Assembly (NCBI RefSeq): GCF_034932185.1
Contig: NZ_JAYGHW010000066.1
Coordinates: 35,180-99,179, forward strand
From: Spirulina sp. CCNP1310
GTDB lineage: Bacteria > Cyanobacteriota > Cyanobacteriia > Cyanobacteriales > Spirulinaceae
Direction of reading: 5' to 3'
DNA length: 64,000 nt
A program made the position numbers and the translations under genes. Positions 13,991 to 35,252 of the stretch are shown one piece after another (within the stretch, counting starts at the first letter, position 1; every line of letters begins with the position of its first letter). A model generated the notes under the pieces. The model did not search any database and was not told where the DNA came from. It saw nothing but the letters and a program-made list of their open reading frames with translations.

Positions 13991-14092
13991 GACTTGGCAG
14001 AGCCAAGTCACGAGGGATTCCCATTCCCTATTGCCCGTTCCCTGTTCCCTGTTCCCCATTCCCCGTTCCCCATTCCCCATCTTCCCCACCCC
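13991..14092. repeat. Hairpin (GACTTGGC-AGA-GCCAAGTC) followed by an array of ~9 heptamers (consensus CCC[A/G]TTC), STRR-like.
   Basis: CCCATTC CCTATTG CCCGTTC CCTGTTC CCTGTTC CCCATTC CCCGTTC CCCATTC CCCATCTTCCCC. The ORF-track ORFs 13796..14089 and 14028..14309 are artifacts of this repeat. Confidence 0.8.
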
Positions 14093-14119
14093 ATGCTATA
14101 GTAGAAAAGCTTAATTTTT

Positions 14120-14193
14120 CGGGATGTGGCGCAGCTTGGTAGCGCACTTCGTTCGGGACGAAGGGGCCGCTGGTTCGAATCCAGTCATCCCGA
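14120..14193 (+). tRNA. tRNA-Pro (anticodon CGG).
   Basis: Acceptor CGGGATG/CATCCCG with discriminator A. D arm GCGCAGCTTGGTAGCGC. Anticodon stem CTTCG/CGAAG with loop TTCGGGA. T arm GCTGGTTCGAATCCAGT. The 3' CCA is not encoded. Confidence 0.85.
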
Positions 14194-14227
14194 TTTGCCA
14201 AGAGCGAATCTAGTTGTATAGTTGATC

Positions 14228-14259
14228 TGCCTGGGGGCGAAAGATTTTTCGCCCCTACA
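14228..14259. repeat. Dispersed palindromic repeat, copy d (TGCCTGGGGGCGAAAGATTTTTCGCCCCTACA).
   Basis: Core conserved with one substitution. It shares the upstream flank TTGATCTGC with copy g. Confidence 0.85.
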
Positions 14260-14438
14260 TCATTTATCCCCCTGGCCAACGGGTGGAAACGTGCGATCGC
14301 CTCACCCACCTCGATGGGGAAACCCTTTTACCCGGTTTAGTCCTCCCCCTGATCTCGTTGTGGGCCTAGGGGCAACCATTCCAGCCAGAAAAGAGAATAT
14401 GTTAACTTGGCCGAAACGGCCGGAATTTCTCTTTCTCC

Positions 14439-14891
14439 TTGGCGATCGCCCCTATGTTTAGCCCCACCCTCCTTTGGTTCATTGCGGGAGCCATCCTCTG
14501 TTTTATGGAGGTGGTATTTCCCACCGCCTTTGTGGAATTCATCATGGGTTTAGCAGCCATCGGCGTGGGGTTGCTTGCCTTCATCCTGCCCTTTTTACCC
14601 TTTCCCGCCCAAGTTCTGCTCTGGCTTGTCTTCACCACGGGGGGGATCATCTTCTCCCGGCGGTCTTTCACCCCCAAGCGGCGATCGCGCTTATTAGAAG
14701 ATTCCCGCCAAGGTCGCACCCTCACCCCCATTGCGCCCGGTGAACTGGGGCGCGTCGTTTGTGATGGCAACTCCTGGCAAGCGCGGTGTGAAGATGAAAC
14801 CTTAGCCATGAATGCCAATACGCCGGTTTTTATTGTCCGCCGCGAAGGTAACACGTTAATTGTGCTGCCCCAATCCGTAATTCAGCCCTAA
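14439..14891 (+). CDS. NfeD-family membrane protein (SPFH partner).
   Basis: N-terminal multi-TM region and a C-terminal OB-fold-like soluble domain (GELGRVVCDGNSWQARCED...PVFIVRREGNTLIV). It is followed 40 bp later by the SPFH gene. Confidence 0.75.
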   Translation: MAIAPMFSPTLLWFIAGAILCFMEVVFPTAFVEFIMGLAAIGVGLLAFILPFLPFPAQVLLWLVFTTGGIIFSRRSFTPKRRSRLLEDSRQGRTLTPIAPGELGRVVCDGNSWQARCEDETLAMNANTPVFIVRREGNTLIVLPQSVIQP

Positions 14892-14932
14892 CCCCTGAAG
14901 ATATACACCACAGTTCACTACGAGGTTGATCC

Positions 14933-15871
14933 ATGCCTGAATTTTTTCTACTGATTTTGTTAGCCTTAGGCGGCTCTACCGCCATCGGCTCAGTGAAAAT
15001 TATCAATGAAAAACATGAAGCCTTGGTGGAAAGCTTGGGGAGCTATAAGAAAAAGCTCACCCCTGGTTTAAACTTAATGGTTCCCTTCATTGACAAGGTG
15101 GTCTATCAAGAAACCACCCGCGAAAAAGTCCTCGACATTGCGCCCCAGTCCTGTATTACCAAAGATAACGTCGCCATCAGTGCCGATGCCGTCGTCTATT
15201 GGAAAATTGTCGATATGGAGAAGGCCTATTATCGGGTGGAAAATCTCCAAAAGGCGATCACCAATCTGGTCTTAACCCAAATTCGCTCCGAAATGGGCAA
15301 GCTCGAACTGGATCAAACCTTTACCGCCCGCAGTGAAATCAATGAAATGCTGTTGCGGGAATTGGATATCGCCACCGATCCCTGGGGCGTGAAGGTGTTG
15401 CGCGTTGAGCTTCGCGATATCACCCCCTCGAAAGCCGTGCAGGATTCGATGGAATTACAAATGACCGCTGAACGGCGGAAACGGGCGGCCATTCTTACCT
15501 CGGAAGGGGAGCGGGATGCGGCGGTTAACTCTGCCCAAGGGAAAGCTGAGGCTAGCATTTTGAATGCAGAAGCGGACAAAAAATCAGCGGTGTTAAGGGC
15601 AGAGGCGGAGGCTCAAAAAGAAGTCCTCAAAGCCCAAGCAACGGCGCGGGCCATGGATATTTTAATGGATAAAATGCGCAGCGATCCCCACGCGAAGGAA
15701 GCCCTGCAATTTATCCTCGCCCAAGACTATTTGACCATGGGTAAAGTGGTGGGCAGCAGTGAAAGCAGCAAGATCATGTTTATGGATCCGGCGAATATGT
15801 TTTCTACCTTGGAAGGGATGCGCTCGGTGTTAGGGGATCTGCCCCAGGATGTTAAGGGGAATGGGTATTAA
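14933..15871 (+). CDS. SPFH/band-7 (stomatin/prohibitin-like) protein.
   Basis: N-terminal TM anchor, then the SPFH core ([45 protein letters not shown]...), then an Ala/Glu-rich coiled-coil tail. Confidence 0.85.
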
Positions 15872-15923
15872 TCGGGGGCATTGAACAACGATCCTCAAAT
15901 GCCCTGAATTTGCAGCCCTGATC

Positions 15924-15954
15924 GGCCCAGGGGCGAAACATTTTTCGCCCCTAC
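15924..15954. repeat. Dispersed palindromic repeat, copy e (GGCCCAGGGGCGAAACATTTTTCGCCCCTACCC).
   Basis: It lies 3' of the SPFH gene stop. Confidence 0.85.
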
Positions 15955-16021
15955 CCCTAGCCAAGGGGGATGTTAAATCTAGTCTAAACATCGGTTAGGA
16001 TGGAGGCGTATTCGCGCTTTT

Positions 16022-16678
16022 TTGATGGTTGCTATGGTGATTCGCCGTCTTTGCTCTGCCCTGATTCCTGCTAGCCTTTGGTGGGGGATGGCGATCGCCC
16101 CCGCTCTGGCCATGCCCGGCCAACCCACCGCCGTTGTGGCCGCTTGGATTTTAGGCAATCAAGCCCTAGAGGGGGTGATGGGGGATGGCCTATCGGTGCG
16201 CCGCAGTAATGGCGGCTCCCAAACCTTTGAATTTACCGCTTCGATTTTTCCGCCGGGCCGGCTTTCCCCGATGGCAGCACGGGGCAGTTGTGCAACGCCG
16301 ATTTATCGCGGCTTGATCCGCTCTGAAACGATCGCCCTACGGGATTTTATCAATGGTGTGCCGCTCGATCGCCTGGAGTTTGGCCTGCGCACGGTGTACG
16401 GGTTAGATATTTATCAAGATTATCGTCAGGCCAGTTTACTCTATGCCTACCCGATGCCCGCTGGCATTGATCTGGGGCGCAGGCTGGGGCGACCGGGAAC
16501 GGAGGGGTATCGGGGGGAAATGCGCCGGGGCGATCGCTATGCCTATTGGTTGGAAATTGCCCACACCGAAACAGGGATGGCCTACAGTGGCCAAATCACC
16601 GTCTTTCTCAAAGAAGATTTACCCAAATTGGTGCGGGAAATGGGGGGCGAAATGGATCCGGTCTGTGAGAATCGCTAG
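16022..16678 (+). CDS. Hypothetical secreted protein.
   Basis: Signal peptide (LIPASLWWGMAIAPALA) and good coding regularity. No recognisable motifs. Confidence 0.5.
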   Translation: MMVAMVIRRLCSALIPASLWWGMAIAPALAMPGQPTAVVAAWILGNQALEGVMGDGLSVRRSNGGSQTFEFTASIFPPGRLSPMAARGSCATPIYRGLIRSETIALRDFINGVPLDRLEFGLRTVYGLDIYQDYRQASLLYAYPMPAGIDLGRRLGRPGTEGYRGEMRRGDRYAYWLEIAHTETGMAYSGQITVFLKEDLPKLVREMGGEMDPVCENR

Positions 16679-16785
16679 CTTTTGCCGAGGATGGAGCGGG
16701 GATCAATTTCCTGGCCCTGGGTTTAACGAGGTTCCCTCTCCCGGTACGATGGAATCAGCGATCCAACAGGAAATAAGGGGGGAAA

Positions 16786-18153
16786 ATGGCGATATTGAGG
16801 AGTAAACCCGTGTTGATCGGTGGGGTGGGTTTATCCTTTGCCCTGTGGGGGTGGTGGCAGTTGCAGGATGTGGGCTTAGATTTAGAAACCCTTGGGTTAT
16901 GGGGTTTGATGGCCGTCGGTGGGGGGATGTGGTGGTTGCGGCGCGATCGCCCCTCCCTTACGGCCAGCAATTCCCAACCCTCATCCCTGACGGCGGCTCA
17001 ACTGACCCAAACCCAAGCCCAAACCGAGGCATTGATCACGCTCCTCGCCGCTGAGTCTCCGAATTTTGATCCCACGCCTTACCAAACACAATTACAAGCA
17101 ATGGCTCAACCCCCTTCGGGGCCGCTCCAGGTGACGATTACCGGCGGTGCTTGGGTGGGTAAAACAGCGTTATTACAGCAATTAGCCGTTGGGGAAGGTT
17201 GGGAGTATCAAGAAGCGGCAACACCTCAGGATCAGACTCATCTCGTCTTAGCCCTCGTTGATGGCGATCTCACCGCTGCGGCATGGGTGCAAATTCAACA
17301 ATGGCGGCAGGCCCATCATCACATTTTCCTCCTTTTAACCAAACAGGATCAACACCCCGAACCCCAACGGCAACAACTCCTCGATACGCTCCGGCAACGG
17401 GTGGCCGGTTGGCTGCCATCGGATCAGGTTTTCGCCATTGCCGCTGCTCCCCGGCTGATCACCGTCCGCCACCATTGCACCGATGGCTCAATCACCGAAA
17501 CCCAAGAACCCCAAGCCCCTCAATTGGGGGATCTGCCCACCCGGTTAGCGATGTTGGCCAACCACAGGGAATCTTTAATCTGGGGCGTGCAGTGGCGACA
17601 ACTGATTGCCCTTCAGGGGGAAATTAAAACGCAATTGAATCAGGAAAGGGGCGATCGCGCCCTGCCGATGATCGAACGGTATCAATGGGTGGCAGCGGCG
17701 GCGGCCTTTGCCAATCCTGTCGCGGCGTTGGATCTGCTGGCCTCCTTAGCGATTAATGCCCAAATGTTCCTCGATCTGGCCCAACTGTACCGCCAACCCC
17801 TGAGCCTCAACCAAGCCCAAACCGCTGCCGCATCCATGGGGGAATTGTTGCTCAAACTGGGGGCGGTGGAAGTTTCCACCCAGGCGATCGCCACCCTCCT
17901 CAAAACCACCCCCCTCACCTATGCCGCTGGCGGCCTGCTCCAGGGGATTAGTGCCGCCTACCTCACCCGCATCGTCGGCCTCACGCTAATCACCCATTTC
18001 GCCCAACAAGACCCCCTCAATCCCCCCAGGACGTTGAATTGGGAAACAATCAGCCAAGGCCTCCAAACTACTCTGAAGCAGACCCAAGCCGCTGGCTGGT
18101 TGGGGGGATTCGTCCAAGAGGTGCGATCGCGCTTAGTCAGTCAGCCCGGATAG
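16786..18153 (+). CDS. Membrane-anchored P-loop GTPase-like protein with a C-terminal DUF697-like domain.
   Basis: Two N-terminal TM helices, a GxxxxGKT P-loop (TGGAWVGKT), and a C-terminal hydrophobic Ala-rich region typical of YcjF/DUF697. Confidence 0.55.
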   Translation: MAILRSKPVLIGGVGLSFALWGWWQLQDVGLDLETLGLWGLMAVGGGMWWLRRDRPSLTASNSQPSSLTAAQLTQTQAQTEALITLLAAESPNFDPTPYQTQLQAMAQPPSGPLQVTITGGAWVGKTALLQQLAVGEGWEYQEAATPQDQTHLVLALVDGDLTAAAWVQIQQWRQAHHHIFLLLTKQDQHPEPQRQQLLDTLRQRVAGWLPSDQVFAIAAAPRLITVRHHCTDGSITETQEPQAPQLGDLPTRLAMLANHRESLIWGVQWRQLIALQGEIKTQLNQERGDRALPMIERYQWVAAAAAFANPVAALDLLASLAINAQMFLDLAQLYRQPLSLNQAQTAAASMGELLLKLGAVEVSTQAIATLLKTTPLTYAAGGLLQGISAAYLTRIVGLTLITHFAQQDPLNPPRTLNWETISQGLQTTLKQTQAAGWLGGFVQEVRSRLVSQPG

Positions 18154-18154
18154 A

Positions 18155-18328
18155 TCTTTTGGGAAGAAAAGAGGATAGAGAAGAGAGGAGAGAGGAAAGT
18201 TGAATCTTCTCCCTCACTTCTCACTCCTCACTTCTCACTTCTCCCTCACTTCTCACTCCTCACTCCTCACTCCTCACTCCTCACTCCTCACTCCTCACTC
18301 CTCACTCCTCACTCCTCACTCCTCACTC
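18155..18328. repeat. Purine-rich arm (GAAGAAAAGAGGATAGAGAAGAGAGGAGAGAGGAAAG) plus a CT-rich inverted partner, followed by ~11 perfect tandem heptamers (CACTCCT) abutting the sdhB stop codon.
   Basis: Read directly from the sequence. The AG-rich and CT-rich halves are mutually complementary, giving a long imperfect hairpin. The perfect heptamer run spans ~18251-18327. Confidence 0.85.
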
Positions 18329-18329
18329 C

Positions 18330-19325
18330 CTACGGTTCCACCTGATGGCGTTGATAATCCTGCACAGCATTGATCAGCGATCGCACCTCCGCCGTCCCCT
18401 CCGAAGGCTCAAACGTAAAGGGAAATTTCCCCTTCGCCAACATCCGAAATCCCAAGGGTAAAATACTCACCAAACCCCGCACATCCTGAAAATAATTCCC
18501 CACCACCTGCAAGCCAAATTTCCGTTCATCCACCCAGCCCCCCGACTTCACTAAATCCACCAACACCTTACGATGACGCACCGGGCGGCTACTGTCTTGA
18601 TCATGGCGGTCTAACACCGCGTGTTTAATTTTACTAATTTGATCTAGAGGAGCCACCTCCATCGGACAAACCGTATTGCACTGATAACAGCGGGTACAGC
18701 CCCAAACCCCATCTAAGCTGTTATATTGTTCAATCCGTTCCTCTGTGCGGGTGTCGCGATTATCCGTAATGAGGCGGTTGGCTTTGGCCAAAGCATGGGG
18801 GCCGAGGAAATCCGGGTTAAAGGCCTTACTATTACAGTCGGAATAACAGGCCCCACAGAGAATACAATTGCCCATCTGATCGAGGCGCGATCGCTCCTCT
18901 GGGGTTTGTAAAAATTCCCGTTCCGGCACCGCTCGCCCTTGGGTACTCACATAGGGATCCACCGCTTCGAGATCATCCCAAAACTGCGCCATATCTACGA
19001 CTAAATCCCGCACCACCGGCAAATTTCCTAAGGGCGCAATGGTGATCACCGGGGGGCGATCGCTCCCCACCGGATGAAAGCGAGTCACCTCCTGAGCAAT
19101 ATTTTCTTTGCAGGCCAGGGTGGCACGGCCATTAATCCGCATCGCACAACTCCCGCAAATTGTATTGCGGCAATTTTTCCGAAAAGTGAGGGAGCCATCC
19201 ACCTCCCACTTGATCCGATTTAAACAGTCGAGAATCGTCTCCCCTGGTTCGACAGTCAGTCGATATTCTTGGGAGTAAGGGTTGCCTTGGGGCTGTTGGC
19301 GGAGAACTTGAAAAGTAACATCCAT
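18330..19325 (-). CDS. sdhB: Succinate dehydrogenase/fumarate reductase iron-sulfur subunit.
   Basis: 2Fe-2S ferredoxin-type N-terminus (CGSCAMRINGRATLAC) and two 4Fe-4S-type Cys clusters (CILCGACYSDC, CTRCYQCNTVCP). Confidence 0.85.
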   Translation of the reverse strand: MDVTFQVLRQQPQGNPYSQEYRLTVEPGETILDCLNRIKWEVDGSLTFRKNCRNTICGSCAMRINGRATLACKENIAQEVTRFHPVGSDRPPVITIAPLGNLPVVRDLVVDMAQFWDDLEAVDPYVSTQGRAVPEREFLQTPEERSRLDQMGNCILCGACYSDCNSKAFNPDFLGPHALAKANRLITDNRDTRTEERIEQYNSLDGVWGCTRCYQCNTVCPMEVAPLDQISKIKHAVLDRHDQDSSRPVRHRKVLVDLVKSGGWVDERKFGLQVVGNYFQDVRGLVSILPLGFRMLAKGKFPFTFEPSEGTAEVRSLINAVQDYQRHQVEP

Positions 19326-19843
19326 AGGGGTTAGAGGGGTGAGGACTGGCGGCGGCTCAGATCAAAAATAGCAACCTGATCGTATCCCTGAACCGAGGTG
19401 AAGGGCAAAACCCACACTAAAAATTTTGGTTTTTGGGTTGCTGATCGCGCATTTTAAGGATCGCGACAATATCTGGATTTTATCCCAATCGGGCAATGGA
19501 GATCCGCAATTTCTCCAGTTCAGGGAAAGTTTCAACCACCCTTGAAATTCTCTGGCCGGTGATCCCCAAGGCATTTTTCACCCCGTCATAAAGATCAGCA
19601 ATTTTCTTGATCTCTAGGGCCTCAGGGTATTACAGCAAAAATTGACAAACCCTAGATTCGCAGTTCCCACGACTGATTTTTGATCTCATCCCTCAGTTCT
19701 CGATCGCCCTCTAAAGATTTTTTCAAAAAAATTTTCAAAAAATGTCACAACCCTGAAGTTTAGCGATATAGTTCTTAGTATGACCAAATTTATGCAGTCA
19801 TCCCTACGGAAATCTCAACCCTATAAGGAGGTCTATTAAAAAG

Positions 19844-20233
19844 ATGTCTGATACTAAGCTGACTGGCAAAGCGCTCCTTCAAAAAGTAAAGGAGTTAGCT
19901 GAACTGCCTCGCCGTGAGACAGCAAAGCAATGCGGCTACTACACCCGTAGCAAAAGTGGTGGCGCACGGGTGAACTTGACTGAATTTTACGATGCAGTTT
20001 TGGCGGCAAAAGGCGTTGCTTTAGACCCAGATGGTGCCAAAGATGGCCGGGGTCGTGAACCGACCTATCGCGTCAGTGTCCATAAAAATGGTCAAATTGT
20101 CATCGGCTCTACCTATACCAACGCCATGGGTTTACACCCCGGTGATGAATTTGAAATCAAGCTCGGTTATAAGCATATCAAGCTGAACAAGCTCGATGAA
20201 AATGGCTTGGCTTCTGGTAACGACGATAACTAA
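19844..20233 (+). CDS. Cyanobacterial AbrB-family transcriptional regulator (cyAbrB/CalA-like).
   Basis: 129 aa with a C-terminal swapped-hairpin AbrB domain (GQIVIGSTYTNAMGLHPGDEFEIKLG). Confidence 0.8.
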   Translation: MSDTKLTGKALLQKVKELAELPRRETAKQCGYYTRSKSGGARVNLTEFYDAVLAAKGVALDPDGAKDGRGREPTYRVSVHKNGQIVIGSTYTNAMGLHPGDEFEIKLGYKHIKLNKLDENGLASGNDDN

Positions 20234-20237
20234 CAAT

Positions 20238-20357: not shown

Positions 20358-20436
20358 GGGGTGATTTTTACCAATAGAAATCACCTCGCTTTTTCATGTC
20401 AATTGATATTGCTCAGGGCATCCCCTGAGCAATATT
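20358..20436. repeat. Two stable hairpins in a 600-bp intergenic region (GGTGATTT-N11-AAATCACC; ATATTGCTCAGGG-CATC-CCCTGAGCAATAT).
   Basis: Perfect 8-bp and 13-bp stems read from the sequence. A third hairpin, CCTGATCC-CCATT-GGATCAGG, lies at ~20712-20733. Confidence 0.7.
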
Positions 20437-20827
20437 CTCTTTCCGATTGCTGGGTGCATCCCGGCTTGGACAATCTACCCCACCCTGCGGGCAGCCGCTT
20501 CGCGTCTACATCCCCCCTGCCCCTTCTTCTCCCACAAGGGGCGAAGGGGAACCAGATTCAAAGTCCCTCTCTCTCCCTGGGGATTGAGGGTGAGGGGGGA
20601 AAAGTGGGATGTTCCCCGATTGCCTCCTGATGGGGCGGCGATCGCCCCTAGCGGCTCTGCACTGAGAACCTTTTATGGAGTAGGAATGTCGGCTCTATGG
20701 CCACAAAAAAGCCCTGATCCCCATTGGATCAGGACTAGCAATTTAACCGTTGAATCCTGTGGGGGGGGATGGATGCGCTGACGCGAATCGGTGCGCTCAC
20801 GCTCTGGGTCTCCCCCCACAAGCTTTG

Positions 20828-28682: not shown

Positions 28683-29465
28683 TTAGTGAATCAGGGGTTT
28701 TATCGAGAGGTCTTCGTAGAAGTGAGATTGAAATAGTTCTACCTTGGATTGGGAGGCTAAGAACAACAAGGCCCAAAACACCCCCACCCGCTCATGGGTG
28801 TTGGCCAGTTGGTGCTGAGATTCCGCCCACCATTGCACCAATTGATCGAGGGGGATGGTTTCCGTGGGGGCTTGATCGGCAAGGGCGGCCAGTTTTTGCT
28901 GATATTGAGGCAAGACCTCCCGCACAAAGATTTCCAGTTGGCTGGCCATTTCGGTGAGGTTTTCATCGTGGGCGAGGGCGGTGATGTGTTGGCGGGCTTC
29001 TTTGTGGCTGTAGCCTTTGGTTGGGGGGCGGGGGCGGGGGGGTTTGGTTTCCAGTACCTGCGCCATTTGTTGAATTTGGGTGATCAGTTCGTCGAGGGTG
29101 ACGCGACGGCGGCGCAGGGGCGGGGCGGCGGGGCGGCGGCGGATGTGTTTTTCCATACGGGTGGGGAGTTGCCGCTCCGGGAGATCATTGAGGTCTTCGG
29201 GAATGTCTTCCGGTTCGGGTTCTAGGGGGATTTCGAGACTATCGGCTTTGAGGAGGACGAGCATGGAGGCCCAAAGGAAGGTTTGACCCGATCGCGGCAG
29301 ATCTGCTTGTTCCTGATGGGGTTCTAAATCCCCACTGAGGGCTAATTTACTCAAATAGCGGTCAATGACATCAATCACCTGCACATCCCAGGGGTCAATT
29401 TCCCCCCGCTGGGCCAGGTCAACCAGGACGGCGATCGCCTCTTCCGCTAAATTAATACTCATCAC
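28683..29465 (-). CDS. scpA: Segregation and condensation protein A (ScpA kleisin)-like.
   Basis: N-terminal AIAVLVDLAQRGEIDPWDVQVIDVIDRYL resembles the ScpA SMC-binding helix motif. It also has a C-terminal winged-helix-like region and a central Pro/Arg-rich insert. Confidence 0.55.
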   Translation of the reverse strand: MMSINLAEEAIAVLVDLAQRGEIDPWDVQVIDVIDRYLSKLALSGDLEPHQEQADLPRSGQTFLWASMLVLLKADSLEIPLEPEPEDIPEDLNDLPERQLPTRMEKHIRRRPAAPPLRRRRVTLDELITQIQQMAQVLETKPPRPRPPTKGYSHKEARQHITALAHDENLTEMASQLEIFVREVLPQYQQKLAALADQAPTETIPLDQLVQWWAESQHQLANTHERVGVFWALLFLASQSKVELFQSHFYEDLSIKPLIH

Positions 29466-29586
29466 TCAACCCCAAATCTGCCCCCATTTTCACTAATTTC
29501 TAGTCAAGGCGCAAAAAAACCTCCGCTGGGCGGAGGCATAGAGAGGAGTGGCCGATGATCAACAAACTCAAGCAAGATTGAGCTTT

Positions 29587-30357
29587 TTAAAGATCAAAAT
29601 CAATGGGTAAACCTGTGGGGCTAGGGCGATTGGTCGGGGTGGTAGGGCGGGGGGCATTGGATCGTAAATTGAGTTGCTCACCTGTGCCGCGATCGGAAGG
29701 GGCTAGGAAAGGCCGCAGATTGATCCCCGCTAATCCCCTCGTGGGAGCCGGTTGACCAGCACCGCCACCGGGCAACTGTAAACCACCGGGTAATTGCAAC
29801 CCACCCCCTAAGACATTACCTAAATCCCGGAGAATATCACCGCTCCCATTGTTATCCCGCAATGTGGGAACGCCTTGGGTTTGTTCGCCACTGTTGGCAA
29901 GGGTGAGGTTATTAAAAACGCTGTCACGGGTGGCGATCGCATCTTGCCCAGGGGGAACCGTCAACACAATCCGGCAAGCGGGATCATCTTCCGTCGTTAC
30001 ACAGATCACGTCGTAGCCGTTTTCCATCCCGGTGCGTAGTTCCACCAAACCATCGGGGCGGTATTCTTCCAAACGGCGGCTAATTTCCGCACAGCGACGC
30101 TCTGCCGACCAGCCCCCGCCTAATTCCCTGGGGGTTGCCCAGGCGTATTGCTGATTGGGTTGCTCCACGGGGCTATAGGCCACCGTGGGGGCCCCCGTCA
30201 TCACTTGACAGCTAAACCGGGGATTTTCCACCGGCTCAACCACAACATCGCCCTCTGTGGGTTGCTCTGGGGCTTGGCTCCAACTGGGGGCAGCTTGGGC
30301 CATAACCCCTAAAAGGGTGAGGCTCAGAGTGGAGTAGAAAAGAGTCTTTAAATGCAT
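29587..30357 (-). CDS. Secreted cyanobacterial protein, possibly COP23 (circadian oscillating protein) family.
   Basis: Signal peptide MHLKTLFYSTLSLTLLGVMAQA, Cys-containing core (FSCQV...RCAEISRRLEEYR...DVICVT...DPACRIVLT), and a Gly/Pro-rich C-terminal tail. The ORF-track start at 30555 is an unlikely N-extension. Confidence 0.4.
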   Translation of the reverse strand: MHLKTLFYSTLSLTLLGVMAQAAPSWSQAPEQPTEGDVVVEPVENPRFSCQVMTGAPTVAYSPVEQPNQQYAWATPRELGGGWSAERRCAEISRRLEEYRPDGLVELRTGMENGYDVICVTTEDDPACRIVLTVPPGQDAIATRDSVFNNLTLANSGEQTQGVPTLRDNNGSGDILRDLGNVLGGGLQLPGGLQLPGGGAGQPAPTRGLAGINLRPFLAPSDRGTGEQLNLRSNAPRPTTPTNRPSPTGLPIDFDL

Positions 30358-30768
30358 AACAAATTTTAAGACGGGTAACGACAAGAGATTGAGTGACGGC
30401 AGAACTAACCCCAACCTGCCAAGACGTATAACTGAGCCATGAAGTTCCCAAAAGCCTAAGGGACTGAAGTCCTTTCTCTCCAAGGTTCGTCGTGAGAACT
30501 TCAATTCTCTCTCAAACGCACCCCATACACCCAGAAAAATCCCCCAATCTCTCAAAATATTGTGATTAAAATTCTTATTAAAAGTTCACACTTTTGTTCT
30601 GTTAAGACTTAGCCAAACTGAGGAAGGAGAGCGATCGCCTGTGTTAAGTTCAAGCTGGCTTGTTCAATGCAGAACTGTTGCGGTTGGGGGTCTACATCCC
30701 CCACTGGCGCAGGGGATTAACCATCATCCCCCTTGTGTACCACAGGGGCCGTGTTGAATCTTGCCTCC

Positions 30769-30843
30769 TCTCGTTTAGCTCAGTGGGTAGAGTGGCCGGC
30801 ATGAACCGGCAGGTCGTGGGTTCAACTCCCACAGCGAGAACCA
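30769..30843 (+). tRNA. tRNA-like gene with CAU in the anticodon loop (Met/Ile2-like) but a non-canonical 6-nt anticodon loop; 3' CCA encoded.
   Basis: Acceptor UCUCGUU/AGCGAGA (U1-A72, one G-U). D arm GCUC-AGUGGGUA-GAGU. Anticodon stem GCCGG/CCGGC enclosing only CAUGAA. Variable loop AGGUC. T arm GUGGG-UUCAACU-CCCAC. Discriminator A, then CCA. Confidence 0.5.
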
Positions 30844-30913
30844 AAAGTTAGCTCACTGGTAGAGCATCAGACTGTTAATCTGACGGTTTTGGGTTCGATT
30901 CCCAAACTTTTTA
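30842..30913 (+). tRNA. tRNA-Asn (anticodon GUU), with a C1-U72 mismatch.
   Basis: D arm GCUC-ACUGGUA-GAGC. Anticodon stem UCAGA/UCUGA with loop CUGUUAA. T arm UUGGG-UUCGAUU-CCCAA. Acceptor CAAAAGU/ACUUUUU. It starts inside the CCA of the preceding tRNA-like gene. Confidence 0.6.
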
Positions 30914-31225
30914 CCCCCGCTCCGGGTAGGAGCACCTCGTTTAGGACGAGTTTCACCCCGCTCCCTTGGCTGGAGGTTCAGCGCCAGCACTAGAGCAAGG
31001 AGCCAGTGCGATCGCCCCTCTAGGATGGCTTGAGTCTACCGCTTTGGGCCTGGGCTGGGCGGGCCAGGTGGGGATCGTTTCCCCCGGTTGCGTCTGCCTC
31101 AACAGTGCTAAACCGGAGATCCCAGCCCCCTAAGGGCGATCGCCCGCCCCAGATCTAGGAACCTCCTCCCCAGGGGAGCACCCCCAATTTCCCTATGTTT
31201 AGCCTGTTTAAAACCTTCTTTTCCT

Positions 31226-32776
31226 ATGTTTGGCCTGCTAAAAACCTTCTACATCAAACCCCACGAACGTGCTTTTTTATTTGAGCGGAGTCATTTTCAA
31301 GGTATCCTCGGCCCCGGCCTCCATCGGCGTATGGGTTGGCATTGGAATATCCAAAGGTTTGATCTCAATGATCCCTCTCCTCAGATTGAAAATCTTGGAT
31401 TTTTATTGCAGAGCGATCGCCCCACTTTAGAAAAATCATTAATCATTGTTGAAACCGCTTTTAATGAAGTTGCCTTAGTTCAAATTGGACGACATTGGCA
31501 GGTCATTACCGCCAATCAACAGGTCGTATTTTGGCGTGGCCTTGATCCCATCACGGTGCATCACTTTAACTTTGAGGTCAGTTTAGAGATTCCCGCTGAA
31601 TTTGTCAGTCCATTACAACGATTGTCAAAAATTGCTGGCGTGCAATTTGTGCAAATTCCAGAGGGACGGATCGGCTTACTTTATGAATGGGGCAACTTTG
31701 TCCGCCCCCTTTTGCCGGGCAATTATGGGTTTTGGTCAATCCCTAACGGCGCAATGATCCGCACCTATGATCACACCCAACCCGATCCCCAATTTCCTGA
31801 CCCCGACACCCTCCTGCAAGCCCATCTCGATTTCCTCCGCGATTACTGCACAGTGGCAGAATTGGGGGCGCAACAGGTGGCGATCGCCCGTCATCACCGC
31901 AAAGTCATTGCCATTTTGCCCCCCTGTAGCCGGAAAATTTTCTGGCGGGAAGTGAGCGTTGAAATCATCGACATTAACCATGGGAGTAAACTCTCCCCCG
32001 CCCTCAGTAAAGAACTGGTTTCAGGCTTAAGGGACGTGTTAGATCTCATCTTGCCCCATGTGCATATGATCGAAGTTCCCGCCCAACATTTAGGGCTACT
32101 TTATCTCGAAAGTGCCTTTCACAGTACCCTCGAACCCGGTTGGCATTTGTGGTGGAAATTTGGCCAGTCCTTAAAAGCAGAGGTGATAGATTTACGTTTG
32201 CAAACTCTCGAAGTTGCTGGTCAAGAAATCCTCTCTAAAGATAAAGTCCCCCTTCGCCTCAACCTCACCGCCGGTTATCGCATCACAGACCCCCTGCGGG
32301 CTAAATCTGAACTGGTGGATATTCCTGGTTTTCTCTATAAAGAATTGCAGTTTGCTCTACGAGGAGCAGTAGGGACAAAAACCCTCGATGAGTTGCTCGA
32401 TGATAAGGGAGCAATTGATCAATCTGTAGCCGATTATATCCTTCAAAAAATCCCCAACTATGGCATTGAAGTGGAATCCGTGGGTGTGAAAGATATCATC
32501 CTACCCGGTGAAATTAAAACCATCTTGAGCCAAGTGGTAGAAGCGGAAAAAGCCGCCCAAGCCAACGTTATCCGCCGCCGGGAGGAAACCGCCGCCACCC
32601 GCAGTATGCTCAACACAGCGCGAGTGATGGAAAATAATCCAACGGCTTTGCGGTTGAAGGAATTGGAAATTCTCGAACGGATCGCCGACAAAATCGAGCG
32701 CATTAACGTCAATGGCAGCCTTGATAATTTGTTAACGGAGGTGATCCACCTCAGCCAAGCTCCAGCGGAGCCTTAA
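31226..32776 (+). CDS. Large SPFH/band-7 domain protein (516 aa).
   Basis: The C-terminal ~250 aa carry an SPFH core and a coiled coil (…IPGFLYKELQFALRGAVGTKTLDELL...EAEKAAQANVIRRREETAATRS...). A 31-nt near-duplicate of the gene start (ATGTTTAGCCTGTTTAAAACC...) lies at 31195, out of frame. Confidence 0.65.
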   Translation: MFGLLKTFYIKPHERAFLFERSHFQGILGPGLHRRMGWHWNIQRFDLNDPSPQIENLGFLLQSDRPTLEKSLIIVETAFNEVALVQIGRHWQVITANQQVVFWRGLDPITVHHFNFEVSLEIPAEFVSPLQRLSKIAGVQFVQIPEGRIGLLYEWGNFVRPLLPGNYGFWSIPNGAMIRTYDHTQPDPQFPDPDTLLQAHLDFLRDYCTVAELGAQQVAIARHHRKVIAILPPCSRKIFWREVSVEIIDINHGSKLSPALSKELVSGLRDVLDLILPHVHMIEVPAQHLGLLYLESAFHSTLEPGWHLWWKFGQSLKAEVIDLRLQTLEVAGQEILSKDKVPLRLNLTAGYRITDPLRAKSELVDIPGFLYKELQFALRGAVGTKTLDELLDDKGAIDQSVADYILQKIPNYGIEVESVGVKDIILPGEIKTILSQVVEAEKAAQANVIRRREETAATRSMLNTARVMENNPTALRLKELEILERIADKIERINVNGSLDNLLTEVIHLSQAPAEP

Positions 32777-32864
32777 GGTTTCTGAGGCAGTCAAGACTGC
32801 TCGCAATCCCTTGCTACAAGCATCAGCCTGAAATCCCTACTCTTCAGATCAATAGATCATTCCC

Positions 32865-33362
32865 CTACTCTCGCACTGCTCCCGCCTGACAATCCCGCAA
32901 CCATAATGTAATCGCCTGACCCATTATCCCCAAACTTGTTTCGCGGGGGGGCATTGGCTCTGTGTCTGGGCTGCTCTCCCCAAAGCGGGTGAAGAGATAA
33001 ACCATGGCCCAACCTGTATCGGTAGGGGTGAGGAAAAGCCAATGGTAATGCTGACGGGTGAGGAGGCGATCGCCCCTAAACTGCTGCTCTAATGTCGTAA
33101 AAAACACCTGCCGAGTCTCCCCATCCTCAGCCCCCCCCAAAGGCAAGGGTTCAAAGTCTGTTTGGCCCGCCAATTGGACATAGGTGAGATAATCCGGGCC
33201 AGAGCGCGATCGCTGCATCACCCGATTCGCATAGCTGGGTAGATCGCTCAACAGTTTGGCGGTGAGCGGTTCAAAGTCTTGGGGACAGGCTTGGGCGTTG
33301 AGAGAGAAGCAGCAAGTGAGCAAGATCCCCCCCAACCCCGCTTTTAAACAATGCGCCCTCAT
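32865..33362 (-). CDS. Hypothetical secreted protein.
   Basis: Signal peptide MRAHCLKAGLGGILLTCCFSLNAQA. It lies immediately downstream of the Ser/Thr kinase on the same strand. The ORF-track start at 33482 would abut the kinase stop. Confidence 0.45.
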   Translation of the reverse strand: MRAHCLKAGLGGILLTCCFSLNAQACPQDFEPLTAKLLSDLPSYANRVMQRSRSGPDYLTYVQLAGQTDFEPLPLGGAEDGETRQVFFTTLEQQFRGDRLLTRQHYHWLFLTPTDTGWAMVYLFTRFGESSPDTEPMPPRETSLGIMGQAITLWLRDCQAGAVRE

Positions 33363-33482
33363 CCCCCAACCCCCAAGGAGGGAGAAGGGGAGCCGGAAAG
33401 CCCGATCTTGCCTCCCCCCCTCCCATCTTTGGGAGAGGGGGACTGAGGGGGTGAGGGACTGAGGGGAGTAAAGAAGGCGCAT

Positions 33483-35015
33483 TTAAAGGAGGGAGGAGAG
33501 GAGTTGATAAATGAGACGGAAAAGGGCGGTGATTAGGACTACAATGGCCGCTGCGAAAATTGCCAACAAAAGATAGCCCTTCAGTCCCGTTAAACCCAAT
33601 CCCCCTAAAACTGCTCCCAAGGCTGCACTGCGATGGAACCACGGCACGAAATTCAGCAATCCCACCGTAATCCCCCCTAAAATGGCGAAATCCCACTTTT
33701 CTAAAAAGCGACGATATTGGCAATAGATTAATCCCCCCATGGCCATCCCCCAAAGGCCGATGCTGATGGGTGTGATCCCCTGGATTAAGCTGATCAAGAT
33801 CATGAAAATTAAGGAACCTTCAAACCCGGTAAAGGCGGAACTGGCAAGGATTTCAGTTAAACCAAAGGGGGCGCGGGAGCCTCGGCGGGAGGGTTGGGGA
33901 ATGGGGGCTGGTGGGGGGCCGGGTTGGGCGATCGCCGGCGCAGGGGGGGGCGGCGGTGCAACGGGGGCCGGGGCCGATGGGGGCGGTGCGGGAGCCGGTT
34001 GGGCAGCGGCTTGGGGTTTAGGGGTGAGGAAACGCAGCACATCCTCAGCGGATTGGAAGCGATCCTTGGGGGTGGGGCGCATCATCTTATCGAGAATAAT
34101 CGCGAGGCGATCGCTCGCCTGGGGTGCAAAGCCCCGCCAATTCCAAGCATTGTTATAGGGATCAAACAGTTCTTGAGAGGGTTTCCCCGTTAACAGCACC
34201 AAACAGGTTGCCCCCAACGCATAGAGATCCGTTGAAGGGTACACCTGAGAACCTTGCATCTGTTCCGGCGGCGCAAACCCCATCGAATAGATCCCCGTCG
34301 AACGATTTTGCCCACCGCCCGCCGCTGCTGCTGTACTGGCCACCTGTTTCACCGCCCCAAAATCCAGTAAAAACAGCCGCCCCTGTTTGTTACGCATGAT
34401 ATTTGAGGGCTTAATATCCCGATGGATCACATCCCGACTATGGATAAACGCCAACACCCCCAAAATTTCCCGCAACACCTCCACCACTTCCCCCTCACTA
34501 AAGGGGCCCCGGGCCGCTAACTCCTGCTCTAGATCCTGACCATCAATAAATTCCTGCACCAAATAGAAAAACTGTTCATCCTGATTCCCTTGGCGGTTCG
34601 GTGTCACGAGGGGGAAAAAGGCAAAGGAATCGGGGATCTGTCGATGTTCCCGCCCCAAATCTTCCAAAACCGCCGCTTCGCGCTCAAAAAGGCCTTGGGC
34701 GATCGCCAACTGTTGGGGGGAAAGATTCCCCGCTGGTTGAAACTGCTTCACCACACATTGTCGTAGCGAGGTGGTATAGCGATCGCGGGCTAAAAACGCC
34801 GTCCCAAAGCCCCCCTGACCCAAGAGCTTCACCGGCAAATAGCGCCCCCCTAAAATCAGCGGCATCCCGCATTGAGTACAAAATTTTTGCTGAGTCGTTT
34901 TGAGCGTATTGGGATCATCAAGATCAGGAAAATGATTCCGTGAGCCACAACTAGGACGAGTACAAAGGATTTCCATGCGTCGGGAAAAATGGGGTATGAA
35001 GCGAATCCCGACCAC
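33483..35015 (-). CDS. Serine/threonine protein kinase (Hanks type) with an N-terminal zinc-ribbon and a C-terminal membrane domain.
   Basis: CxxxxC...CxxC at the N-terminus, then GQGGFGTAF (G-loop), VVKQ (Lys), HRDIKPSNIM, DFG, APPE, a Pro/Ala-rich linker and 3-4 TM helices. Confidence 0.9.
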   Translation of the reverse strand: MVGIRFIPHFSRRMEILCTRPSCGSRNHFPDLDDPNTLKTTQQKFCTQCGMPLILGGRYLPVKLLGQGGFGTAFLARDRYTTSLRQCVVKQFQPAGNLSPQQLAIAQGLFEREAAVLEDLGREHRQIPDSFAFFPLVTPNRQGNQDEQFFYLVQEFIDGQDLEQELAARGPFSEGEVVEVLREILGVLAFIHSRDVIHRDIKPSNIMRNKQGRLFLLDFGAVKQVASTAAAAGGGQNRSTGIYSMGFAPPEQMQGSQVYPSTDLYALGATCLVLLTGKPSQELFDPYNNAWNWRGFAPQASDRLAIILDKMMRPTPKDRFQSAEDVLRFLTPKPQAAAQPAPAPPPSAPAPVAPPPPPAPAIAQPGPPPAPIPQPSRRGSRAPFGLTEILASSAFTGFEGSLIFMILISLIQGITPISIGLWGMAMGGLIYCQYRRFLEKWDFAILGGITVGLLNFVPWFHRSAALGAVLGGLGLTGLKGYLLLAIFAAAIVVLITALFRLIYQLLSSLL

Positions 35016-35070
35016 CGGGAAACTTCTTCTCTAGCCTAGCGACCCAAGGGGGAATCTTCAATATCGTTGA

Positions 35071-35252
35071 TGGAAGGAAAGAGGATAGAGGATAGAGAAG
35101 AGAGCGAAGTTGCAATCCTCACTCCTCCTTTTGATGGGCGTGGGGGCGAAAAATTTTTGTGCCTCCGGCAGGCTTACGCCAACGCCCCTATATCAACTTC
35201 CCACTTCCCACTTCCCACTTCCCACTTCCCACTTCCCACTCCTCACTCCTTC
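35071..35252. repeat. Purine-rich arm (GGAAGGAAAGAGGATAGAGGATAGAGAAGAGAG) plus CT-rich partner, an embedded palindromic-repeat copy, and six tandem heptamers (ACTTCCC) abutting the rbcR-like stop.
   Basis: It shares the AAGAGGATAGAG...TTG(C)AATC...CTCACTCCTC architecture with the 18155-18328 locus. The ORF-track ORFs 35067..35354 and 35110..35322 are artifacts (PTSHFPL repeats). Confidence 0.8.
35134..35168. repeat. Dispersed palindromic repeat, copy f (GGGCGTGGGGGCGAAAAATTTTTGTGCCTCC, degenerate 3' arm).
   Basis: The 5' arm and AT core are intact; the 3' arm has diverged. Confidence 0.7.

Follow-up and report, generated by a model that had tools for sequence, protein, structure and literature searches.

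A candidate dispersed repeat with a conserved purine-rich head and a heptamer array at two gene 3' ends in Spirulina sp. CCNP1310

The question raised by this locus is whether heptamer arrays lying next to stop codons are separate microsatellites or copies of one element that was spread through the genome. As the earlier note had described, period-7 arrays are present at three loci of the window, i.e., the whole 64-kb stretch of DNA analysed here, which was confirmed with Tandem Repeats Finder (TRF) and by reading of the sequence (Table 1). TRF reported a CCCATTC-type array at locus 1 (14020-14080, 8.7 copies, 81% matches), where the G-tract pattern of the minus strand runs on to 14092, a CCTCACT array at locus 2 (18212-18329, 17.3 copies) and an ACTTCCC array at locus 3 (35196-35240, 6.4 copies, 100% matches). 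The uninterrupted period-7 self-match covers 71 nt at locus 2 (18252-18329) and 38 nt at locus 3 (35196-35240), whereas the longest run in 100 shuffled controls was 11 nt.

Table 1. Positions of the repeat features in the window.
Feature	Position	Strand	Remarks
Locus 1 C-rich heptamer array, CCCATTC / CCCGTTC / CCCTGTT units	14020-14092	+	without head
Locus 2 T-rich left flank, ATCTTTT(G)	18154-18160	+	follows the DUF697 stop TAG (18151-18153) and precedes the head
Locus 2 purine head, GGGAAGAAAAGAGGATAGAGAAGAGAGGAGAGAGGAAAG	18161-18199	+	nhmmer E = 7e-8; conserved, family-defining part
Locus 2 tip/loop, TTGAATC	18200-18206	+	
Locus 2 pyrimidine arm	18207-18329	+	degenerate CTCACTY 18207-18250, then 11 perfect CACTCCT 18251-18327
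Locus 3 purine head, GGAAGGAAAGAGGATAGAGGATAGAGAAGAGAGCGAAG	35072-35109	+	nhmmer E = 8e-7
Locus 3 tip, TTGCAATC, and short proximal pyrimidine arm, CTCACTCCTCC	35110-35128	+	CT arm 35118-35128
Locus 3 insert, 67 nt	35129-35195		holds REP-like palindrome variant GGGGGCGAAAAATTTTTG...CGCCCCTAT; splits the pyrimidine arm
Locus 3 distal pyrimidine arm	35196-35249	+	(ACTTCCC) x 6.4, perfect, then ACTCCTCACTCC

Locus 1 is an ordinary STRR-like microsatellite of a related G3/C3-type heptamer; the purine head is absent there. Its array reads (GGGGAAT/C)n on the minus strand, lies between an ABC-transporter stop (13936) and tRNA-Pro (14119) and is directly followed by a conserved TATAGT. At loci 2 and 3 a common purine-rich motif had been proposed, and this is borne out: AAGAGGATAGAG occurs at 18169 and 35079, against 0.11 expected matches, and an nhmmer profile of the family head recovered these two copies and no further one in the window up to E = 10. 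The two heads (38-39 nt) align gap-free, are themselves heptamer-periodic with AGAGGAT-type units (TRF rows 18165-18199 and 35075-35104) and run into TTGAATC and TTGCAATC, respectively.

At locus 3 the head is indeed present, but it does not directly precede the array, as the insert separates the ACTTCCC units from the head and its CT arm. The palindrome of the insert belongs to family D5 (copy 35135-35163), is self-folding and is unrelated to the head-array element. An insert-split pyrimidine arm is also found in the sister species and at further family loci; at L029 the head is joined directly to an ACTTCCC array with no gap. The minus strand of locus 3 reads (GGGAAGT)6, and both arms are different in the sister species. 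As to the genes, the sdhB-like ORF (18330-19325, minus strand) has its stop TAG (CTA at 18330-18332) immediately adjoining the locus 2 array. The stop TGA of the LysR/rbcR-like ORF (minus strand; TCA at 35243-35245) lies within the array-like terminal CTCACTCC, so that this stop and the final two codons fall in the distal arm.

Copies of the head-plus-array were found at no fewer than 22 distinct loci in Spirulina sp. CCNP1310, in a metagenomic species of ~90% identity and in the MAG Spirulina sp. DLM2.Bin59, a census biased towards loci that were fetched for containing the head, with exact 19-24-mers as queries. The pattern AAGNAAAGAGGATAGAGNNNAGAG gave four loci in the MAG and GGAAGRAAAGAGGATAGAG gave 13 loci in the JGI metagenomes Ga0316611/Ga0316612, all with the order head, tip and array kept, and variant-head copies were also found within those fetched loci. 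The module is therefore not restricted to two sites; such a restriction is what the earlier note had named as counter-evidence to its own proposal.

When 20 heads were aligned, the upstream flanks proved unrelated and the similarity began abruptly at GGGAAG, giving a sharp left boundary. The ordered, non-uniform 35-nt head GGGAAGAAAAGAGGATAGAGAAGAGAGGATAGAG is nearly unchanged at about 20 unrelated sites. Three copies, all at non-orthologous sites, form a subfamily with the purine arm extended by (GTAGGAA)n; two of them (L003, L046) share the tip AAATTTCC(C)TTGCCACT and the third (L023, 636-782) has a related one. The element consists of a short T-rich flank, a purine head (about 35-39 nt), a tip that varies (7-14 nt) and has its own short palindrome in some copies, and a pyrimidine arm of about 4 to more than 25 heptamers of CTCACTY or ACTTCCC type. 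Because one arm is an expandable microsatellite, the length of the element spans about 75-236 nt. The inverted repeats at its ends, GGAAGGA...TCCTTCC, are weak, being present in about half of the copies. TCTTTTR flanks resembling that of locus 2 are also present at L023 and L046, and the empty site has no T-rich flank. Judged from these alignments, the comparison shows a unit that has evidently been copied to many unrelated intergenic sites within a narrow Spirulina-like clade.

The window shares its gene order with the Ga0316611 species (~89-90% nucleotide identity), where the element is present at loci 2 and 3. In GCA_011390265.1 (~87% nucleotide identity) both loci are without it, likewise in more distant relatives (L079-82; L086). 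In the former genome the gap between DUF697 and sdhB is just TAA-CCCC-CTA (L091), with the convergent stops 4 nt apart and no repeat seed inside, tRNA-Pro has no upstream array (L091), and rbcR is followed by 20 nt instead of ~175 nt (L075). Neither of these empty/occupied comparisons (loci 2 and 3) revealed a target-site duplication. Together, the loci in three genomes and the empty orthologous sites in a fourth support the earlier suggestion of a mobile or templated element. The two 'empty' locus 3 sites each retain an 11-nt match to a part of the element: that of L075, ATCTTTTAGGA abutting CTCCTTCG, resembles joined termini, and that of L079, TGCAATCCTCA, equals the tip sequence. These matches may therefore be deletion remnants, in which case the element would be older and its loss as important as its gain.

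Array length differs between sister species by 7-nt steps, with 8 units against 9 in the window at locus 1 (L088/L089) and ~6 against 17 at locus 2 (L033, L037, L083-85, L088). The variation in copy number that had been expected was thus found between relatives, at all three loci, but the arrays are identical in several assemblies of the sister species and therefore no within-species hypervariability was seen. For the proposed extension of gene 3' ends by slippage there is little room: the sdhB stop lies outside the array, and the reverse strand of CACTCCT-type units has a TGA every 7 nt, so that all three frames close within 21 nt. The locus 2 ortholog of the sister species contains a 17-bp perfect palindrome (DNA fold z = -3.6), where five clustered differences all bring the left arm into exact reverse complementarity with the right. 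This suggests arm-to-arm template switching in a single ortholog pair, with the direction taken from how closely the window copy resembles the family consensus.

The copies are found almost always within a few bases past a stop codon. At 17 of the 22 distinct loci an element end lies within 20 nt of, or overlaps, the stop codon of an ORF with 90 aa or more that reads into it (gene calls in the relatives being ORF heuristics), compared with 8.9% of the non-coding positions in the window (binomial P about 2e-14). In about seven loci both ends abut stops and the element takes up all the space between convergent genes; sometimes it provides the last codons and the stop of a gene. Some copies lie directly upstream of start codons (L023, L046).

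We favour, with a probability of roughly 0.6, the reading that loci 2 and 3 each carry one copy of a dispersed repeat, non-coding and specific to the lineage, which would have been distributed by copy-and-paste and later changed by slippage. After insertion the pyrimidine arm would lengthen or shorten through slipped-strand mispairing, and intrastrand (hairpin) template switching might now and then bring one arm into line with the other. The stop-side position would reflect either a target preference or the survival only of insertions that spared coding and promoter sequence. The effect of the elements on neighbouring genes may be neutral, and the strong conservation of the head could be due to selection for function rather than recent copying.

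The first alternative is an adaptive bidirectional 3'-end structure. The purine and pyrimidine arms would pair in transcripts arriving from either side, giving a hairpin that would terminate transcription, insulate convergent genes or stabilise mRNA 3' ends, its strength being tuned by array length. The proximity to stops, at both ends in several loci, and the conservation of the head between species speak for it, as does locus 2, where the ancestral gap left the convergent genes without a terminator of their own. A long hairpin had been claimed for loci 2 and 3, and folding is possible, with a minimum free energy at locus 2 of -40 kcal/mol as RNA and -19 kcal/mol as DNA. However, when the unit sequences were compared by eye the arms proved only ~70% complementary, which makes the hairpin imperfect and the element a quasi-palindrome. 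The fold is also not clearly more stable than composition-matched shuffles: against dinucleotide shuffles, z was -1.45, +0.53 and -2.09 in the case of RNA, -1.9 and -0.7 in the case of DNA, and the DNA values across copies ranged from -0.01 to -1.9, bar one at -3.6. The family consensus structure reaches -8.1 kcal/mol with compensatory pairs at 0 of 21, and the repeat units shift (CACTCCT, CACTCCC, ACTTCCC, CACTTCT) without matching shifts of the head. Tip palindromes are significant in 3 of 15 copies, neither window copy among them. The hairpin can form, but it is largely a composition effect of a purine tract adjoining a pyrimidine tract. The terminator idea is weakened as well, as the intrinsic-terminator scan returned no site at locus 2 and one weak match, at the tip, at locus 3, and no U-tract follows the stem. 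Considering also the copies directly upstream of start codons, we regard this explanation as unlikely.

Still less probable, from the base patterns considered, is a role of non-B DNA or RNA, in which a G-quadruplex or i-motif at GGGAAGT and GGGGAAT units, or H-DNA or an intrastrand triplex at the purine/pyrimidine tracts, would affect replication, transcription or the local stability of the genome. The minus strand has 11 G-tracts at locus 1 and 6 at locus 3, both fitting the G3+N1-7 quadruplex pattern, and G4 formation in vitro is known for comparable GGGNATC heptamers, which are stop-proximal, too (PMC4692102). However, locus 2 with the longest array is without G3 tracts on both strands, and the window holds 21 G4-pattern matches, so that the pattern is non-specific. 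For a triplex, the pyrimidine arm is more than twice as long as the purine arm, as needed for the R-Y-Y order, and CACTCCT, taken as a cyclic word, has mirror symmetry; such motifs for an intrastrand triplex occur in large numbers in some cyanobacteria and are linked to instability (PMC4666352). Against this, one A per heptamer in the pyrimidine strand breaks the homopyrimidine run that triplexes need. Neither structure explains the conserved, sharply bounded head and its dispersal.

Very improbable is the reading as RNA motifs that would bind ribosomes or a CsrA/S1/Csp-type protein just past termination. In the sense of the upstream gene the arrays, which directly follow stop codons, give SD-like or GGA-containing units, (AGGAGUG)n and AAGAGGA, the opposite arm resembles the anti-SD CACUCCUUC, and a role of heptamer repeats as sites for post-transcriptional regulators has been put forward (PMC4679880). 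However, the argument is one of resemblance, the orientation varies with respect to the neighbouring genes, and ACTTCCC/GGGAAGT units have no SD-like core. Equally remote, and already disfavoured for the head-bearing loci, is slippage in place from stop-side seeds with convergence on slippage-prone units and no mobility, which would fit the heptamer periodicity of both arms, the headless arrays (locus 1, L022 about 6073-6095, L043 2807-2839, L075 7916-7941) and the native rbcR 3' end ACTCCTTCG, similar to the repeat unit even in element-free genomes, but not the near-constant head with its sharp left edge, the derived tips common to subfamily members at non-orthologous loci or the seedless empty site of locus 2.

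The dispersed-repeat reading can be compared with several known systems. The STRR, short tandemly repeated repetitive heptanucleotide sequences, were reportedly described in heterocystous cyanobacteria by Mazel and co-workers in 1990. The arrays of the window are STRR-like, as had been suggested, in that tandem units of 7 nt are dispersed over many, mostly intergenic loci with a strain-variable copy number. In difference to STRR, the units CCCCAGT, TTGGTCA and CAACAGT do not occur in tandem within the window, the host is a non-heterocystous, Spirulina-like organism, and two of the three loci have a conserved head outside the array as well as a second arm that is inverted and semi-complementary. 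Quasipalindrome-templated mutation, i.e., intrastrand template switching in imperfect inverted repeats, is an established mutational mechanism, and the clustered multi-base differences of the locus 2 ortholog likewise perfect an imperfect inverted repeat, although here in one ortholog pair with its direction drawn from consensus similarity.

Small dispersed repeats, the SDR elements of Nostoc, are said to have been reported by Elhai and co-workers in 2008. With REP/REPIN/BIME and MITE-type elements (Bertels and Rainey, 2011, PMC3116915) the head-array element has in common that it is short, non-coding, multi-copy, extragenic, typically located past gene 3' ends and hairpin-capable, with sharp boundaries, subfamilies and lineage restriction. 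It differs by the expandable microsatellite arm, the weak terminal inverted repeats, the lack of a target-site duplication at the compared sites and the lack of a GTAG-plus-palindrome core. Another repeat family within the window has such a core.

The quadruplex-forming heptamers GGGAATC and GGGGA(C/T)T of Xanthomonas and Nostoc are found genome-wide, are strongly intergenic and lie for the most part within 0-50 bp of a stop codon, which some of them overlap (Rehm et al., 2015, PMC4692102). In xanthomonads their length and sequence vary between related species at the same intergenic site, and 70-75 convergent inverted pairs could form stem-loops, with few paired repeats in Nostoc (PMC4692102). 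Loci 1 and 3 resemble them, with a G3 tract recurring at 7-nt intervals on the gene-sense or antisense strand. However, the unit sequences differ, the locus 2 array has no G-tracts, and the arms are unlike each other (AGAGGAT-type versus CTCACTY-type) rather than one unit inverted, one of them being a conserved, sharply bounded module common to all copies.

TAACTGA direct repeats occur in Beggiatoaceae, Cyanobacteria and Bacteroidetes (MacGregor, 2015, PMC4679880), including the non-heterocystous Microcystis and Cyanothece. Heptamer repeats are thus not limited to cyanobacteria with heterocysts (PMC4679880, PMC4692102). They lie mostly just upstream of starts in BOGUAY, the most-studied Beggiatoaceae genome, and at mixed positions in the sampled cyanobacteria (PMC4679880). 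Intergenic heptamer arrays, 7-nt-step indels between sister strains and strain-specific distributions are shared features, whereas the unit sequence differs and their description includes neither a conserved flanking module nor an inverted arm (PMC4679880). The element is a lineage-specific version of the heptamer repeats already known in cyanobacteria.

Tandem Repeats Finder assigns a period of 7 nt to the heptamer arrays at all three sites reported in the earlier note (locus 1, locus 2 and locus 3), and the perfect period-7 self-matches of 71 nt (18252-18329) and 38 nt (35196-35240) are far longer than anything in 100 shuffled versions of the window, where the maximum was 11 nt. A purine tract lies ahead of the array at loci 2 and 3. 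The two tracts (18161-18199 and 35072-35109) align without gaps and are followed by TTGAATC at locus 2 and TTGCAATC at locus 3. Chance would give 0.11 occurrences of the head core AAGAGGATAGAG in the window, and a search with the head-family profile matched exactly two copies, at loci 2 and 3, and no further head in the window, in agreement with the earlier observation of the same purine-rich motif before two arrays. A third AAGAGGATAGAG-like match at 60916 was rejected, as it is isolated, contains one mismatch, lacks an array and is missed by the head profile. Head, variable tip and CT-rich heptamer array (pyrimidine arm) together are called the element here; according to Tandem Repeats Finder the head is heptamer-periodic, too. 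Locus 1 is headless and is an ordinary heptamer array. Besides the 3 loci in the 64 kb window, the related loci (315 kb, a biased sample) contain about 30 more period-7 arrays.

The arrays also meet stop codons, as had been claimed. The sdhB stop CTA (18330-18332) directly follows the locus 2 array, and the rbcR-like stop TCA (35243-35245) lies within the array-like terminal CTCACTCC of locus 3. On the other side of locus 2, the stop of the DUF697 gene (18151-18153) is located 7 nt ahead of the head.

Arrays, neighbouring genes and REP-like palindromes in the window
Feature	Coordinates	Strand	Description	Source
Locus 1 array	14020-14080		CCCATTC-type, period 7, 8.7 copies, 81% matches	Tandem Repeats Finder
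Locus 2 array	18212-18329		CCTCACT, period 7, 17.3 copies	Tandem Repeats Finder
Locus 3 array	35196-35240		ACTTCCC, period 7, 6.4 copies, 100% matches	Tandem Repeats Finder
ABC transporter	10847-13936	+		Pfam
tRNA-Pro	14119-14194			
DUF697 protein	16786-18153	+		Pfam
SdhB-type iron-sulfur subunit	18330-19325	-		Pfam
Ser/Thr kinase	33483-35015	-		Pfam
LysR-family regulator	35243-36250	-	highly similar to cyanobacterial RbcR-type proteins	Pfam
REP-like palindrome, six full copies	6982-7009, 8827-8854, 14231-14258, 15927-15954, 40630-40657, 57922-57949			
REP-like palindrome, partial copies	13938-13958, 35135-35195			

Further copies were found in relatives. A degenerate 20-base head pattern matched four loci in the MAG Spirulina sp. 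DLM2.Bin59, and a 19-mer search yielded 13 loci in the metagenomes Ga0316611/Ga0316612, whereas most other matches of the head patterns in genome contigs and metagenomes were chance purine-rich sequence in unrelated taxa. The DLM2.Bin59 and Ga0316611/Ga0316612 loci have one architecture in common, in which the head is followed by a tip of 7-14 nt (often GAAATTGAAATTTC) and by CTCACTY-type heptamers. Additional copies with variant heads are present inside the same loci of relatives. In one variant copy an ACTTCCC array is joined straight to the head, which shows that the locus 3 array is part of the element despite the insert that interrupts it. When 20 copies were aligned, the upstream flanks were unrelated and identity started abruptly at GGGAAG. 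In one subfamily the purine arm is extended by (GTAGGAA)n (stretches L003, L046 and L023 636-782 from relatives); L003 and L046 have the tip AAATTTCC(C)TTGCCACT in common and L023 carries a related one, and the three members occupy non-orthologous sites in two species. The same head architecture at many sites, the sharp left edge and the subfamilies are hard to obtain from growth of arrays in place and thus indicate copying, which strengthens the earlier suggestion of a mobile or templated module.

The head pattern also detected one variant in the MAG Oscillatoriales cyanobacterium S07.Bin090 (L012 ~3260-3371), where the purine head GGAAGGAAAGAGGATAGAGTCGAGAGGAAAGAG is followed by (TCTCTTTTCTATGCA) x 4 with a 15-nt period, so the head can couple to other repeat types. 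In DLM2.Bin59 the end of contig RECT01000148.1 falls inside the heptamer array of an element (L013 1-90); arrays evidently break short-read assemblies and copy numbers from MAGs are therefore lower bounds. An ATG is often found ahead of the head, but a small-ORF reading was rejected since the frame varies among copies.

We favour the reading, with a probability of roughly 0.6, that the element is a lineage-specific copy-and-paste quasi-palindromic repeat which lodges by stop codons and then evolves via slippage and arm-to-arm template switching. The head-plus-array would be copied as a unit into sites beside stop codons; after lodging, slippage would change the length of the array and template switching between the arms would alter the element itself.

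The proximity to stop codons was counted for 22 distinct element loci, using flanking ORFs of at least 90 aa. The head side begins at most 20 nt after the stop of a same-strand ORF at 13 of the 22 loci; at 11 of the 22, an opposite-strand ORF has a stop that the array side adjoins or overlaps. One or both of these arrangements is present at 17/22 loci, and about 7/22 have both, being convergent gene pairs in which the element is the entire gap. For comparison, only 8.9% of the non-coding positions of the window are equally close to a stop (binomial P of 2e-14). A few copies (L023, L046) end straight at a start codon. As the reverse strand of CACTCCT-type units contains a TGA every 7 nt, ORFs that enter such an array are closed within 21 nt, and the idea that slippage could extend the 3' ends of genes was not borne out. 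ORFs reach 13-23 nt into the array in L003, L009, L032 and L068.

Relatives of the window organism include a sister species known from metagenomes (contig Ga0316611_1000002 and others from repeated JGI/ENA assemblies), which is syntenic with the window at ~89-90% nucleotide identity, GCA_011390265.1 (~87%), GCA_964502285.1 (~77%) and GCA_001890765.1, a genome with a 4.99-Mb scaffold (~79%, over little aligned sequence). The sister species carries the element at the orthologs of both locus 2 and locus 3, whereas it is absent from both in GCA_011390265.1 and from locus 3 in GCA_964502285.1 (L079-82). In GCA_011390265.1 the DUF697/sdhB gap (L091) consists of CCCC only (...GCATAA CCCC CTAAGG...), so the 176 nt of the window occupy an otherwise 4-nt space between convergent stop codons. 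At locus 3 the same genome (L075) has 20 nt in place of ~175 nt, and its RbcR ends with KES* instead of KE*; thus, the stop codon and the preceding base in the window are supplied by element sequence. No target-site duplication, i.e., no direct repeats flanking the element, was present when the window was compared with L091 at locus 2 and with L075 at locus 3.

The sites without the element at locus 3 may be deletion remnants and not virgin sites. L075 (~5005-5110; ortholog of window 35016-35245) retains ATCTTTTAGGA, an 11-nt match to the left end of L046, joined to the right-end-like CTCCTTCG, and L079 (~5002-5258; ortholog of the same interval) keeps TGCAATCCTCA, an 11-nt match to the tip of the locus 3 copy in the window. 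Loss may therefore count as much as gain. Another length difference, ~270 nt in the window (20428-20697) vs ~850 nt in the sister species (L033 2492-3340), was rejected as a repeat element, because the additional sequence codes for a small TusA-like protein (MADKTLDIKGVNEP...) and reflects a difference in gene content.

Copies at orthologous sites differ in a manner consistent with slippage and template switching after insertion. The locus 2 array has ~17 units in the window vs 6 in the sister species, the locus 1 array 9 vs 8, a difference of exactly one 7-nt unit, and at locus 3 both arms differ, including a concerted GAGGATA to GAGGAAA change in two head units. The array length variation proposed earlier is thus found between the two species at all three loci but not within the sister species, whose assemblies from several samples are identical at each of them and give no sign of hypervariability. 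In the sister-species locus 2 copy (L037 4200-4296, identical in L033, L083-85 and L088; ortholog of window 18154-18250) the arms form a 17-bp perfect palindrome, GAGAAGTGAGGGAGAAG / agttgaac / CTTCTCCCTCACTTCTC. It differs from the window by five clustered changes, and all of them bring the left arm into exact reverse complementarity with the right one; of the two copies, that of the window is nearer to the family consensus. Such clustered, arm-correcting changes are what intrastrand template switching typically leaves behind in a quasi-palindrome, and the palindromic ortholog is the strongest indirect sign that the arms, at least on occasion, do pair as DNA.

A selected function of this pairing as a hairpin or terminator is not supported. 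The arms of locus 2 can pair (MFE -40.5 kcal/mol for RNA, -18.8 kcal/mol for DNA), yet dinucleotide shuffles leave z-scores that are at most modest, both for RNA (-1.45, +0.53, -2.09) and for DNA (-1.94, -0.69, -0.01, -1.04), with -3.57 for the corrected locus 2 ortholog alone. RNAalifold gave a consensus of only -8.1 kcal/mol for 15 copies, in which 0 of 21 pairs were compensatory; array units vary among copies without matching changes in the head, and only 3 of 15 copies have a significant tip palindrome. For the terminator activity considered earlier, a scan for intrinsic (Rho-independent) terminators, i.e., a G+C-rich stem-loop with a U-tract, came up empty at locus 2 and gave a single weak candidate, at the locus 3 tip (9 pairs, 4 of them G-C). 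The long hairpin of the earlier note is hence possible as a fold, but with these z-scores, no compensatory pairs and one weak terminator site, selection for it is the less likely reading.

At gathering thresholds Rfam detected three tRNAs in the window and nothing at the element. One of the tRNAs (30769-30840, 54.6 bits) is reported by ARAGORN as 'tRNA-???' at 30769-30843 with a 2-nt anticodon (tg), abutting a tRNA-Asn at 30842-30915; its anticodon loop is either unusual or was parsed wrongly.

The window contains a separate dispersed REP-like palindrome, GTAG-GGGCGAAAAATTTTTCGCCCC (other strand ...CGCCCCTAC), in which GTAG is followed by a stem-loop. Unlike the element, this family (GTAGGGGCGAAAAATTTTTCGCCCC) fits the REP pattern of GTAG plus an imperfect palindrome; its six full copies compare with none expected by chance, and they appear terminator-like in a simple scan. 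The pyrimidine arm of locus 3 is split by a 67-nt insert (35129-35195) that carries a variant of this unrelated palindromic repeat (GGGGCGAAAAATTTTTCGCCCC(TAC)). At locus 3 and its ortholog the palindrome occupies the loop that joins the two heptamer arms (purine and pyrimidine), and it does so again in L068 6759-6932, L069 ~1830-2060 and L014 ~2229-2300, so its association with the heptamer element is recurrent. A cluster of 35-nt units (CCGGCTACGCCGACCCCCTTAA...) that includes CCCCCTTAAAAAGGGGG-type palindromes was noted at 37191-37432, downstream of the NnrU gene; its relative upstream of tRNA-Pro in GCA_011390265.1 (L091 1634-1727) makes it the clade's third family of small repeats.

A more far-reaching proposal, which we regard as unlikely, is that the element is a self-propagating, quasi-palindromic 'microsatellite carrier' of an undescribed kind. 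It would insert specifically just after stop codons, even into a 4-nt convergent gap, without target-site duplication, might move by means of a hairpin/ssDNA intermediate or of template switching at the replication fork, and could then serve as a length-tunable bidirectional 3'-end module. The recurrent GTAG-type palindrome in the element loop (locus 3, L068, L069, L014) might point to a mobilising enzyme common to both repeats.

As a probable copy-and-paste repeat beside stop codons, the element bears on a long-standing question, since heptamer repeats have been fingerprinting markers in cyanobacteria for decades while their origin and role are still unexplained. The family is unusually tractable, with a conserved, searchable head, occupied and empty orthologous sites, measurable length changes between sister species and a template-switched ortholog. 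It could therefore serve to distinguish spread by copying from growth in place, and to study the causes of the clustering at stops and any effect on the formation of 3' ends between tightly packed convergent genes. The elements define the final codons plus the stop in some genes, interrupt short-read assemblies as at the L013 contig end, and could help to type strains of Spirulina-like cyanobacteria. Should they turn out to be neutral, a routine note in genome annotation would suffice.

Heptamer SSRs have long been recognised in cyanobacteria as STRR sequences, with the canonical STRR1-3 units CCCCAGT, TTGGTCA and CAACAGT, and SDR elements were reportedly described by Elhai et al. in 2008. The arrays resemble STRR in their tandem 7-nt units (8.7, 17.3 and 6.4 copies) and in their dispersal over many loci, 3 in the 64 kb window and more in relatives. 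However, the canonical units are missing from the window, where no tandem pair of any of the three was found with one mismatch allowed, and the host is not heterocystous: Spirulina is a non-heterocystous genus, and the best protein matches are Spirulina sp. CCNP1310 (100% identity for the Band 7 protein), further Spirulina species and Spirulinaceae. Inverted heptamer-array hairpins also exist outside cyanobacteria: in MAGs of the unrelated Chitinophagaceae (L010 ~40-221) and Desulfobacteraceae (L001 ~3400-3617), a loop separates purine heptamers from complementary pyrimidine heptamers, e.g., (GAGGATA)n ... (CTATCCT / CTACCCT)n.

The closest documented parallel are the GGGAATC / GGGGA(C/T)T repeats of Xanthomonas and Nostoc, which are intergenic, lie mostly 0-50 bp from stops with some overlapping them, and have no known function; in xanthomonads 70-75 convergent inverted pairs occur, and the repeats vary in length between species (PMC4692102). 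TAACTGA repeats differ by indels in 7-nt steps between sister Cyanothece strains and are also found in non-heterocystous taxa (PMC4679880). Compared by sequence pattern with the G4-forming heptamer repeats (Rehm et al., 2015; at least four G3 tracts 7 nt apart), loci 1 and 3 have G3 tracts every 7 nt on the minus strand (11 and 6 tracts, respectively), whereas locus 2 does not show this pattern. Like those repeats, the arrays are intergenic and within ~50 bp of a stop (coding strand) or a start (non-coding strand). The G-rich strand of locus 3 is the rbcR sense strand and overlaps the rbcR stop; that of locus 1 is the antisense strand, and its end lies 27 nt upstream of tRNA-Pro.

With REP/REPIN and MITE families, which are extragenic, 3'-proximal, hairpin-capable and multi-copy (PMC3116915), the element has this general character in common. 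In contrast to REP/REPIN sequences its head begins with GGGAAG without a GTAG-palindrome core, and neither arm is an inverted copy of the other. Like MITEs it is polymorphic for presence and absence at orthologs, although the residues at locus 3 leave deletion as an alternative; about half of the copies have a left GGAAGGA facing a right TCCTTCC while others end differently, and, unlike in MITEs, no target-site duplication accompanies the element in the two comparisons of occupied and empty sites. The composite of a conserved, sharply bounded purine head that is copied together with an expandable, partly complementary pyrimidine microsatellite appears not to have been described before.
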